DNA from: Simkaniaceae bacterium
GTDB taxonomy: Bacteria > Chlamydiota > Chlamydiia > Chlamydiales > JACRBE01
Direction of reading: 5' to 3'
Assembly (NCBI GenBank): GCA_021734805.1
Contig: JAIPIG010000005.1
Coordinates: forward strand, 29 to 64,028
Length of the DNA stretch: 64,000 nt
The notes under the pieces are model-generated. The model ran no database searches, was not told the origin of the DNA, and saw only the letters and a list, made by a program, of their open reading frames with translations. The position numbers and the translations under genes are program-made. Below, one piece after another: positions 37,721 through 40,326 of this stretch (the first letter of the stretch is position 1; every line of letters starts with the position of its first letter).

Positions 37721-38524
37721 ATGTCAGAGTTGTTTCCTGCATCGGAAGGTCCGCACGCGGATTATGGTGTTTCTTTAATCGTCCAAGACAGAGCGAAACT
37801 AGAATTAGATAAAGACCGCTTAGCTAAAGCGACTGACCCGTTTCATGCATTCTATTATATGATTGCTGAACATTTGGATGTCCAAGCTTTAGCGCAGTTA
37901 TCTCAGGGGATCAATGTACTGGCCGGACAATTAAGTGAGCTACAAGTCTATGTCAATTCGATCACGGATGTTAAAGCGGCCTTTATGGCAGGTCAAACGG
38001 AAGCGCCGGGAGTACCGGATATTAAATTGCGAATTCAAATTGCGACATTTATTAATAAGCTTGTAGGGCAACCAATTGTGAGAACGAACGGAGTTAAGAT
38101 CAGCTATAGTGATTTTCAACTCGCTTTAAAAGCAGCTGACGGGCCGACACATGATCCTATTTTTTCCCCACAGACAATTACGAAAATGATTCAGCAGATT
38201 ATGACCGGATTTAAGGTCACTAGCGCAAATGATGGGGTATTAGCCGGATTCATTACATTGAAGTCCATTTGGGACAAGGCTGAATCGGGAGGTTCATCGG
38301 GAGCGATTCCGGGGATGCCTTACCCACCGGCTATTGACGGATACCTCAATGCGATCAGTTCTGTTGGTGGATATGTGAAGGGGATTGCAGGTGTTGAAAC
38401 GACAAATATGAATTACCAACAAAAGCACTATTTAGGAGTCCTCTCCTTTTTGAAGAGTATGTTTGGATATTATTACGGTCAGCTACAGGCACCGGTAAAA
38501 AAGACACAACAAGCCGGATCGTAA
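37721..38524 (+). CDS. paralog 1 of a triplicated family (267 aa), EspA/SseB-like layout; T3S-secreted candidate
   Basis: DPFHAFYYMIAEHL hydrophobic/aromatic block followed by a polar helix. C-terminal block VETTNMNYQQKHYLGVLSFLKSM. No signal peptide or TM segment. Confidence 0.6.
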   Translation: MSELFPASEGPHADYGVSLIVQDRAKLELDKDRLAKATDPFHAFYYMIAEHLDVQALAQLSQGINVLAGQLSELQVYVNSITDVKAAFMAGQTEAPGVPDIKLRIQIATFINKLVGQPIVRTNGVKISYSDFQLALKAADGPTHDPIFSPQTITKMIQQIMTGFKVTSANDGVLAGFITLKSIWDKAESGGSSGAIPGMPYPPAIDGYLNAISSVGGYVKGIAGVETTNMNYQQKHYLGVLSFLKSMFGYYYGQLQAPVKKTQQAGS

Positions 38525-38567
38525 AAGTAAAAAAGTTAATAAATAATAATAATAAAAAGGTAAAAAA

Positions 38568-39380
38568 ATGGTTTCATCTCATTTAGCTACATTAGATCCA
38601 TCTACAGCTAAAAGTCATATTGATCCTGCTCAAAAGGCTACCGATAGCCAATTGGCTGATGTTGTAAAGGGTGATCCTTTTGAGCTTTTTTTCTACTATG
38701 TCACGGTTGTGATGCAGCAAGACCAGACTCAATCACAGTCACAAAATATTTATAACCTCTCTGATCAGTTAAGTCAAATGACGGGATATTTAAACGATTG
38801 GAACTCGGTTAAAAGTTCTTTCTATGCTTCTGCTTCTTCAGTAAATGACGATCAGACGCCTGAGTTTAGAGGTGGATTAGGGAAGGTCCTCAACGAGCTT
38901 TTTCAGCCTTATATGAATTATATTGGGGTTCCAAGCTTTCCTGAAGACGGATCCATCAGTGCAGATACTTATCAGAACTATACAAAGCTCAGTAACTATA
39001 TTGAGAATGCCCCCGATTCTGAGTTAAATCAGACTGTTCTCGGAACGGCCGTGAGGGGAATCATGCAAAATACCGATCAGTTGGCGGTGTTTTTAAATCC
39101 AAGTAAGACGCCTTTATCGCTTAATCTGTTTTGGCAATCGTGTATGTCGGGAAATGCGGATAATTTGAATTTACCGAATCCTATCCTCCTTCAGCCCTTT
39201 GTTAATGCCCTTTCAGAAGGAGCGGGAACACTGGGTGGGATTTCATCAACCGAATCATCAAAATTGCAGTATTCGCAAAACCAATTCAACCGACTACAGT
39301 CGTTTATCAAAGATATGCTCAACGATTGGGTCACTCAGAGACATAATTTTAACAGTGCGATGGGTCAAGCCAACTCATAA
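38568..39380 (+). CDS. paralog 2 of the triplicated family (270 aa)
   Basis: DPFELFFYYVTVVMQQ block. The C-terminus LPNPILLQPFVNALSEGAGTLGGISSTESSKLQYSQNQFNRLQSFIKDMLNDWVTQR is closely parallel to paralog 3. Confidence 0.65.
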   Translation: MVSSHLATLDPSTAKSHIDPAQKATDSQLADVVKGDPFELFFYYVTVVMQQDQTQSQSQNIYNLSDQLSQMTGYLNDWNSVKSSFYASASSVNDDQTPEFRGGLGKVLNELFQPYMNYIGVPSFPEDGSISADTYQNYTKLSNYIENAPDSELNQTVLGTAVRGIMQNTDQLAVFLNPSKTPLSLNLFWQSCMSGNADNLNLPNPILLQPFVNALSEGAGTLGGISSTESSKLQYSQNQFNRLQSFIKDMLNDWVTQRHNFNSAMGQANS

Positions 39381-39474
39381 TCATAACCGAAAATAATAAA
39401 AAGGTAGCTAAAGCTTAAGTTTGAATAAGACCTTAAGCTTTAGAGTCATAATAAAAGGGTAATAGAGGTATACA

Positions 39475-40326
39475 ATGGTTAATGTAGCTCCATCAAGTCC
39501 ATTTGTTGCGGATGTGAGTATGTCGGGAGATCCAAGCGCTCAAATCGCTTCGATCACCAAGTCGGAAATCGCTCAGCTACTTTCAGAGAATGGGATGAGT
39601 GAGAAGAGCAACCCCTTTATGTTGTTTTATTTCTACTTGACCATGGTGTTAGGTGGCGATCGAATGAAAGAGGGAGCTGCAAATATCGATAAGTTTTCTG
39701 CACAATTAAAAGAGATGTCCAGCTATCTCAATTTAGCAAATGCCATTAAAAGTGAATTCTATGGATGCGCCGATGCAGATCATTCCGTCGATGTCCGAAA
39801 TGCCGTAAAAACATTTCTGAATACGATGTTGGGGACATTTTTTGAAAATGTCAAGGCCTTTCCCCCATTTAAGGGCGGAAAAGAAGGGCAGATGGACAAT
39901 ACTTATTTTTCAATCGTGCTCCAGTATATCCAGAAGCAGCAAACGGATGGAAACACTCAATTTTTTGAAAAGAATTTTCCCACTTTAGGGCAGAATGTCA
40001 TCAATTTAATGACTAACTTACAATCGCTCGGGAGTTGTGTCTTTGTCTTAGAGGGAAATCAGCCTGAAAATATTCATTCGCTTTGGCAAAAAGCCCAATC
40101 CTCAGGGGGATATGGCCTTCCAAATGCTTATATATTACAGCCTTACATCGACTGTCTTTCTGAGGAATCAACAACGGTGGGTGGAATAGCCTCAGCGGAA
40201 TCCTCTAAGCTTCAGTATGCTGTGGGAGTGTATAATAAACTTGAGGCTTGTGTGCATGATCTTATGAATCAATGGCTTGTGCAACGAAAAAGGTTTGATA
40301 CATCAATGAAAGGCGCTAGAAACTAA
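39475..40326 (+). CDS. paralog 3 of the triplicated family (283 aa)
   Basis: NPFMLFYFYLTMVLGG block. C-terminus LPNAYILQPYIDCLSEESTTVGGIASAESSKLQYAVGVYNKLEACVHDLMNQWLVQR. Confidence 0.65.
   Translation: MVNVAPSSPFVADVSMSGDPSAQIASITKSEIAQLLSENGMSEKSNPFMLFYFYLTMVLGGDRMKEGAANIDKFSAQLKEMSSYLNLANAIKSEFYGCADADHSVDVRNAVKTFLNTMLGTFFENVKAFPPFKGGKEGQMDNTYFSIVLQYIQKQQTDGNTQFFEKNFPTLGQNVINLMTNLQSLGSCVFVLEGNQPENIHSLWQKAQSSGGYGLPNAYILQPYIDCLSEESTTVGGIASAESSKLQYAVGVYNKLEACVHDLMNQWLVQRKRFDTSMKGARN

Follow-up and report, generated by a model that had tools for sequence, protein, structure and literature searches.

A rare family of tandem paralogs beside the translocator genes of a Simkaniaceae type III secretion locus: candidate needle-distal proteins

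Which protein sits at the distal end of the needle of the chlamydial (Cds) injectisome is a question raised again by three consecutive genes, here called par1, par2 and par3, in a 64,000-nucleotide stretch of the metagenome-assembled genome of a Simkaniaceae bacterium (assembly GCA_021734805.1, contig JAIPIG010000005.1, positions 29 to 64,028), referred to below as the window. In well-studied injectisomes, the type III secretion systems (T3SS) that inject proteins into host cells, the gene for the hydrophilic translocator adjoins those for the hydrophobic ones. Known hydrophilic translocators have been listed in the SctA column of a published table, in which CT584 is given as the SctA of Chlamydia (PMC9993115). 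CT584/Cpn0803, the proposed tip protein of the Chlamydiaceae, does not have the central coiled coil of tip proteins (PMC3260263), and for this reason the chlamydial tip slot is without a confirmed occupant. A first reading of the window, made from its sequence alone (the sequence-only reading), had seen in the three genes a triplicated set of EspA/SseB-like needle-extension subunits. Here we propose tentatively, and with a little less than even confidence, that they encode secreted proteins of the hydrophilic translocator class (SctA-like) of the Cds injectisome, which form a new orphan family and act as a needle-distal tip or short extension. This reading is favoured because of the synteny with T3SS genes, the helical architecture, the pattern of conservation, a rate of divergence like that of the translocators, the probable co-regulation, the resemblance of one sequence block to EspA/SseB and the open tip slot.

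The three open reading frames (ORFs) delineated by the sequence-only reading on the plus strand were recovered with the same boundaries and lengths (Table 1), and its description of them as paralogs was confirmed. In BLASTP comparisons, par2 and par3 aligned over ~275 amino acids (aa) with an E-value of 4e-41 and 32% identity, par1 and par2 with 2e-14 (24% identity), and par1 and par3 with 4e-12 (23% identity), a similarity well above chance that identifies them, at the sequence level, as true paralogs. The (D/N)PF-aromatic motifs that had been quoted (DPFHAFYYMIAEHL, DPFELFFYYVTVVMQQ and NPFMLFYFYLTMVLGG) were all found in the ORFs, as were both of the quoted C-terminal blocks. Orthologs of par1, par2 and par3 are present in the same order in other assemblies, which indicates that the three are real genes. 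A repeat search of the window found no DNA-level repeats between the array copies, and the duplications are therefore considered to be old; a recent duplication or gene conversion of the array was rejected, as the copies have no DNA repeats in common. The absence of a signal peptide and of a transmembrane helix in all three proteins was likewise confirmed: their Kyte-Doolittle maxima over 19 residues range from 0.81 to 1.20 (threshold for a transmembrane-grade segment: 1.6 over a 19-residue window) and their N-termini have no h-region.

The paralogs belong to a very rare, previously undescribed and T3SS-linked family with a variable tandem copy number. A full HMMER search with a profile of the paralogs retrieved 28 proteins or clusters among 1.84 billion cluster representatives, and a look-up of the sources of some of these members showed that most came from metagenome assemblies (Logan, ENA). 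When 185,579 GTDB species genomes were searched with two narrow peptide patterns, one further species was found, the Simkaniaceae metagenome-assembled genome Candidatus Amphrikana amoebophyrae, whose name suggests an Amoebophrya host. Two scans of JGI metagenomes yielded nothing in the first case and a single 1.4-kb fragment in the second. Word-indexed homolog searches gave almost no match other than the queries themselves, and a literature search found, within the library covered, no description of the family or of Amphrikana. At the search sensitivity used, no homologs were detected in the Chlamydiaceae or in any other named chlamydia, in agreement with the earlier remark that the copB/copD operons of Chlamydiaceae are not known to contain such genes.

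Eight loci had a readable gene context (the window, L001, L004, L005, L006, L007, L009 and L010), seven of them complete. Two family copies are present in L006, three each in the window, L001, L007 and L009, seven in L004 (Candidatus Amphrikana amoebophyrae) and nine in L005; the term "triplicated" is thus correct for the window, but does not describe the general state, which ranges from two to nine copies. The members are 258-322 aa long, and a tree splits them into two subfamilies, within which lineage-specific duplications have taken place. Subfamily A (par1 type, with the motifs DPFHAFYYM and LKSMFGYY) forms a separate clade; each of the seven complete loci has exactly one such copy, which leads the array and in L007 and L009 lies on the opposite strand. 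Subfamily B (par2/par3 type, with the motifs ESSKLQY, DW and SMSQANS) is represented by one to eight copies. Some arrays also hold other genes: in L004 a 367-aa protein with a Fic motif (HPYYDGNGRTAR; 12753-13856, plus strand) is inserted among the paralogs, and in L005 (11775-12503, plus strand) the array holds two small foreign ORFs of 104 and 110 aa, one of which has a faint match to the ubiquitin-like Rad60-SLD.

The tight linkage to translocon genes that had been claimed for the window was conserved wherever it could be examined. In eight out of eight loci the family lies inside the Cds cluster and adjoins the translocator genes and p140, a gene for a 140-aa protein, and in the seven complete loci the genes from the CesT-like chaperone and CdsD to CdsN are also found upstream. 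A frequent occurrence of orthologs in genomes lacking a T3SS, which the sequence-only reading had itself named as speaking against its proposal, was not observed. In the window, the minus strand between 23810 and 36045 is colinear with the CT663-CT673 cluster of Chlamydia and encodes, in this order, a CesT-family chaperone, the FHA-containing CdsD, a DUF5398 protein (CdsE), the 80-aa needle protein CdsF, the TPR-like CdsG, a CT668-like protein, the ATPase CdsN, CdsO, a FliN-C protein (CdsQ) and a Pkn5-like kinase. The divergent plus strand carries three small genes (s1-s3), the three paralogs, p140, the genes for proteins of 596, 350 and 773 aa, and those for ClpX, ClpP and trigger factor. The paralogs are therefore located upstream of the major and minor translocator genes, the gene order of espA, although not directly as had been stated, since the conserved p140 and a separate promoter-like element lie in between.

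The architecture of the family was derived from an AlphaFold2 model of par3, built from an alignment of 26 sequences (an alignment of four gave an unusable model, with a predicted local distance difference test score (pLDDT) of 44.7). In this model (pLDDT 81.6, predicted template modelling score 0.68), residues 1-26 are disordered (pLDDT < 50), a 51-residue helix (47-97) starts at the NPF-aromatic block, a mostly helical domain (104-209) follows as the part of highest confidence, and a 61-residue helix (222-282) reaches the C-terminus. This last helix shows a hydrophobic periodicity of 3.5 residues, that is, of heptads (P = 0.0085). Measured against the coiled coil reported for tip proteins (PMC3260263), helices 47-97 and 222-282 of the model flank the helical domain and may pair with each other. 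The first 25 residues consist for 48% of S/T/P/G/N/Q and for 22% of hydrophobic residues, compared to 41% and 32% in the remainder; a polar, disordered N-terminus and the lack of a Sec signal and of a transmembrane segment are generic features of T3SS substrates, although weak and non-specific ones. The N-terminal block and the last ~65 residues are the best conserved parts, and the first 30 residues and parts of the middle the least conserved. Conserved termini around a variable centre fit the pattern expected of axial T3SS proteins.

The array diverges at a rate that matches that of the translocators. When the window was compared with L001 or L004, orthologs were 44-46% identical in subfamily A and 30-36% in subfamily B (36% for par2 and its nearest relatives within the subfamily, in L001 and L004), 32-36% for the translocators, 60-62% for p140, 61-63% for CdsD and 86-87% for CdsF and CdsN (86% for the needle protein CdsF); the last 50 residues of CdsF are invariant across four loci.

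A promoter- or leader-like element precedes both the array and p140. Its two copies (elements 1 and 2 in Table 1) constitute a 49-nt direct repeat, D1, with a 24-nt core, TATAAT-N4-TTAAGGGTA(A/G)ATAG, that occurs at 37688-37711, 33 nt before the ATG of par1, and at 40359-40382. These are the only two occurrences of the core in the 64 kb of the window, where none would be expected. In six out of six loci, a TATAAT is found at -31 to -36 from the ATG of the leading array gene, which is the subfamily A gene in five of them and the first plus-strand gene in L009. This arrangement suggests that operons of T3SS substrates have a promoter or leader in common and are co-regulated. The array is probably a transcription unit of its own, co-regulated with the translocator operon, and element 2 probably marks the start of the latter as a separate operon.

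Taken as needle-distal proteins, the paralogs would work as follows. The disordered N-terminus of 25-45 residues would act as the type III secretion signal. Once the protein is exported, a coiled coil would form between the long N-terminal helix, headed by the (D/N)PF-aromatic block, and the C-terminal helix with its heptad periodicity, and would attach to the distal end of the CdsF needle, which is itself nearly invariant. Both docking and oligomerisation would rely on the conserved terminal helices, while the variable helical middle domain would face the host, and the resulting assembly would serve as a scaffold for inserting the SseC-type and minor translocators, whose genes follow just downstream. 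Subfamily A, with its single copy (par1), may serve as a constant adaptor, and the members of subfamily B (par2 and par3 here, one to eight copies elsewhere) as distal subunits that either co-assemble or replace one another and thereby diversify the recognition of hosts. A bolder form of this proposal, about which we are more doubtful, is that a so far unrecognised SctA family fills the tip or filament slot in these protist-associated Simkaniaceae, one constant A subunit and one to eight interchangeable B subunits building, in a way unique to them, a modular and diversifiable tip or extension that tunes the recognition of host membranes.

Membership of the EspA/SseB family itself, as implied by the sequence-only reading, was not supported. 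Membership was defined as a match to the family hidden Markov model above its gathering score of 23.4 bits, and PF03433 was matched neither by the three window proteins (at E ≤ 1) nor by the 28 family members (at E ≤ 0.1). The positive controls were recognised by Pfam with E-values of 1.6e-20 (EspA), 7.8e-80 (SseB) and 3.6e-200 (LcrV). The suggested relationship with tip proteins found no support either: no LcrV/IpaD-type or other meaningful Pfam match and no NCBIfam match was obtained for the three proteins and the 28 members, searches of the PDB sequences with the single proteins returned nothing, and a search with the family profile returned no EspA, LcrV, IpaD, SipD, BipD or CT584 chain at E ≤ 10. 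A Cpn0803 chain should be present in the PDB library searched, since its crystal structure has been published (PMC3260263). A Foldseek search of the PDB with the par3 model gave no significant match (best E 0.46, TM-score ≤ 0.29); the top matches were generic elongated antiparallel helical bundles, flagellins being found at E 1.5-2.1. The build of the family also departs from that of EspA/SseB (~190 aa, two long terminal helices, no large insert), as a helical domain of ~100 residues lies between its helices.

A local resemblance to EspA/SseB was found when the family profile was compared, using hhalign, with an alignment of 13 genuine EspA/SseB sequences of low diversity (effective number of sequences 1.9). 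The match is marginal (E 0.022, probability 2.1%), covers 33 columns in the N-terminal block only, and places family columns 36-69 against SseB 34-66, that is, the NPF, the hydrophobic stretch and the K-F. Its score of 21.3 compares with 12.1 ± 2.1 in column shuffles (maximum 18.0; none out of 100 reached it) and with 12.6 for the reversed profile, and a relaxed alignment of the family with SseB is colinear to the C-terminus, where it matches the conserved C-terminal Trp. The aligned stretch is thus exactly the block pointed out in the sequence-only reading as similar to SseB. The resemblance is real as a motif but does not establish homology; the family may be a very distant and enlarged relative of EspA/SseB. 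Comparisons with the needle, p140, major translocator and minor translocator families of the locus were all non-significant, so that the paralogs are no obvious derivatives of these. The idea of a needle extension accordingly stays plausible, with partial support from context and architecture, but no significant match in sequence or fold speaks for it.

Table 1. Array genes, promoter-like elements and neighbouring genes, with positions in the window.
Feature	Position	Strand	Length (aa)	Description
par1	37721..38524	+	267	subfamily A, array head; ORF and BLASTP to par2/par3
par2	38568..39380	+	270	subfamily B; K9M07_01775, NCBI hypothetical protein
par3	39475..40326	+	283	subfamily B; K9M07_01780, NCBI hypothetical protein; copy modelled
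Promoter/leader-like element 1	37663..37711	+		TTGTTT-17-TATAAT, then TTAAGGGTAAATAG; upstream of par1
Promoter/leader-like element 2	40334..40382	+		TTGAAA-17-TATAAT, 11/12 matches; upstream of p140
Degenerate third copy of the element	43838..43886			before the 773-aa gene
s1, s2, s3	36373..37565	+	113, 127, 154	small charged helical ORFs
p140	40408..40830	+	140	acidic (isoelectric point (pI) 4.3), Q/N/S-rich; between array and SseC-like translocator
Major translocator	40888..42678	+	596	SseC/YopB/CopB-type (SctE-like)
Putative minor translocator	42727..43779	+	350	SctB-like, by position only
773-aa protein	43902..46223	+	773	after the translocators; no family match; Ser/Asp/Glu-rich C-terminal third, probably disordered
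CdsG-like ORF	32264..32692	-	142	only TPR-like protein nearby
CT668-like protein	31594..32244	-	216	C-terminus (…LLMVQVKLARAQQEIEYSSTILSNAISDIKMLFNTQI) resembles inner-rod (SctI) proteins
Pkn5-like ORF	23810..25420	-	536	end of the T3SS cluster; Ser/Thr kinase (E 1.8e-44) and SpoIIE/PP2C-type phosphatase (E 8e-6)

The genes that flank the array were also compared across the loci. The small genes s1-s3 accompany it in each of the seven complete loci and mostly lie directly upstream of it, whatever the number of paralogs. The products of s2 and s3, which are weak paralogs (E 9e-5), share at their C-terminal ends a Lys-rich tail and, after it, W-x-K-S/T; none of the three matched the family libraries. 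By analogy with SseA, CesAB or LcrG, they may be chaperones or regulators. A scheme of three chaperones for three paralogs was rejected, as s1-s3 are constant while the paralogs vary from two to nine, and no relationship of s1 to s2 or s3 could be detected.

Further copies of p140 are located in L004 (15047-15469 and 18505-18921) and L005 (14810-15226 and 18339-18755). Across loci the protein is 48-67% identical, with a strongly conserved C-terminal block (...DVNNDSSQSQEALNMASTIINGV.FFNNLLSQ.F). No Pfam or PDB match was found for it, and its hhalign comparison with the C-terminal half of EspA/SseB was marginal (E 0.026 over 84 columns; one out of 100 shuffles reached the score). It could be a tip protein, a co-assembling partner of the paralogs, or a non-TPR chaperone of the translocators.

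Both genes that follow p140 had been described as translocator genes. For the 596-aa protein, with hydrophobic segments at residues 137-174, 204-226 and 439-465, a YopB/SseC/EspD type is supported at the family level, three of its seven orthologs matching PF04888 (SseC; best E 4e-7), but not by the window copy itself (E 7.5, profile positions 35-294). The gene for the 350-aa protein directly follows that of the major translocator in every complete locus, which agrees with the proposed YopD/SseD/EspB type; the protein has no Pfam or PDB match and its window copy has no transmembrane-grade segment, so that the assignment stands by position, but not by family. In L005 the module of p140, SseC-like major translocator and minor translocator is tandemly duplicated (14810-20801), reminiscent of the two Chlamydia sets CopB/CopD and CopB2/CopD2, and L004 has at least a second copy of p140 (15047-18921). 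No gene for a TPR class II chaperone of the LcrH/SycD/Scc2 type was found beside the translocators in the window (40408-43779 and flanks). The position of the 773-aa protein, a likely effector, is conserved (617-777 aa), and the protein is 25% identical to its L001 ortholog. For the CT668-like protein, a faint match to Pfam T3SS_needle_F was obtained with the L009 ortholog.

Several observations weigh against the paralogs being needle-distal proteins. We know of no injectisome with two to nine SctA paralogs. The C-terminal part of the family alone showed no significant similarity to EspA/SseB (seven out of 100 shuffles reached its score), subfamily A alone did not match (E 0.17), and other helical families of the locus, compared as controls, scored E 0.11-0.2, little worse than EspA/SseB. 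Moreover, p140 is an equally plausible and equally placed candidate for the tip. With a promoter-like element of its own, the array need not belong to the translocon operon; none of the known tip or filament families was significantly similar in Pfam, NCBIfam, PDB sequences or Foldseek; and tandem arrays of paralogs, often helical, are typical of chlamydial effectors. The last three of these points equally suit the main rival explanation, that the paralogs are tandemly amplified T3SS effectors which are translocated, act in the host and have no structural role at the needle. Effectors could also account for the change in copy number from two to nine between related genomes by lineage-specific duplication, for the fast divergence (30-46% identity), for the insertion of foreign genes such as the Fic-domain gene of L004, and for the weaker copy of the upstream element before the effector-like 773-aa protein. 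Less easily explained in this way are the strictly conserved position of the array, which in the seven complete loci lies between s1-s3 on the one hand and p140 with the translocators on the other, the subfamily that is always present as a single copy at the head of the array, the conservation of the extreme C-terminal helix above all other parts, as is typical of axial or assembling proteins, and the uniform helical-hairpin build without an enzymatic or eukaryote-like domain. On balance, we consider an effector role unlikely, though it is the alternative to be taken most seriously.

The candidacy of p140 can be extended into an explanation that partly overlaps with the previous one: p140 would be the true tip protein (SctA), and the paralogs a second, sheath- or adhesin-like, needle-distal layer or unrelated secreted proteins. 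The location of p140 immediately upstream of the major translocator gene, its duplication together with it, a level of identity (48-67%) as expected for the partner of an invariant needle, a Q/N/S-rich composition like that of axial proteins and the 84-column alignment mentioned above all speak for it. That alignment is marginal, no Pfam or PDB match accompanies it, and a small, acidic and conserved protein would fit a chaperone just as well; we regard this explanation as improbable. Still less probable, in our view, is that the paralogs remain in the cytoplasm as chaperones or export regulators of the hydrophobic translocators, in place of an LcrH/SycD-type TPR chaperone. No gene for such a chaperone was found beside the translocators, and the paralogs are all-helical and, in the case of par2 and par3, acidic (pI 4.4 and 5.3), but their length of 258-322 aa is roughly double that of known T3SS chaperones, they diverge as fast as secreted proteins while the CesT-like chaperone and p140 are more conserved, and their disordered, polar N-terminus fits a secretion substrate. 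A two- to nine-fold variation in copy number is also hard to reconcile with one or two sets of translocators, and by size and conservation p140 or s1-s3 would be better candidates for such chaperones.

Found in a lineage with a canonical Cds system, and suited to the role by its gene position and plausible architecture, the family offers a concrete and testable candidate for a needle-tip component of chlamydiae, and a basis for comparing the ways in which chlamydial needles make contact with host membranes. Should they turn out to be effectors instead, they would still constitute a new and rapidly expanding T3SS-linked family, specific to a poorly known group that includes Candidatus Amphrikana amoebophyrae.

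Among known systems, a close parallel is offered by EspA of enteropathogenic and enterohaemorrhagic Escherichia coli (LEE4 operon) and SseB of the Salmonella pathogenicity island 2 (SPI-2), hydrophilic translocators of PF03433 that form filaments or sheaths. As in the family described here, their genes lie upstream of those for the major and minor translocators, and the proteins have no Sec signal or transmembrane segment, are all-helical with long N- and C-terminal helices, and carry an N-proximal NPF/hydrophobic-aromatic block followed by a K-F motif; SseB and subfamily B also have a conserved Trp near the C-terminus. In SPI-2 a small helical protein, SseA, is encoded nearby, as are s1-s3 in our locus. 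Unlike EspA and SseB, the family is ~80-120 aa longer, owing to the ~100-residue helical middle domain, has two to nine copies in two subfamilies, and is separated from the translocator genes by a 140-aa gene.

The tip proteins LcrV/PcrV (PF04792) and IpaD/SipD/BipD are similar in size (~270-330 aa), their genes adjoin translocator genes, and, as in the par3 model, two long helices flank a globular domain, the second one reaching the C-terminus. The small LcrG/PcrG are comparable to the small helical proteins encoded upstream of the array. The family differs from these tip proteins in the absence of sequence or Foldseek similarity, in a middle that is predicted to be almost wholly helical instead of a mixed alpha/beta distal domain, in being multi-copy, and in having no N-terminal self-chaperoning hairpin of the kind present in IpaD. 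CT584/Cpn0803 is, like the family, a candidate for the SctA role in the chlamydial injectisome (PMC9993115). Unlike CT584/Cpn0803, with which neither the single proteins nor the profile showed sequence similarity in the PDB, the family is predicted to have two very long terminal helices and is encoded beside the translocators.

The organisation of the array also has a counterpart outside the injectisomes. In multi-flagellin loci, such as those of Caulobacter and Vibrio, several tandem flagellin paralogs contribute to one filament. These loci have in common with the array that tandem paralogs of axial type combine conserved terminal helices with a variable centre, and that one conserved type is accompanied by variable ones. 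They differ in that the system here is an injectisome and not a flagellum, and no Pfam homology to flagellin was found, the Foldseek matches being limited to those given above. If the needle-distal reading is correct, a tip or extension made of one constant and several variable paralogs would be a way of organising injectisomes that is new and has its analogue in multi-flagellin filaments, and it would point to a needle tip that diversifies in host range or antigenicity.

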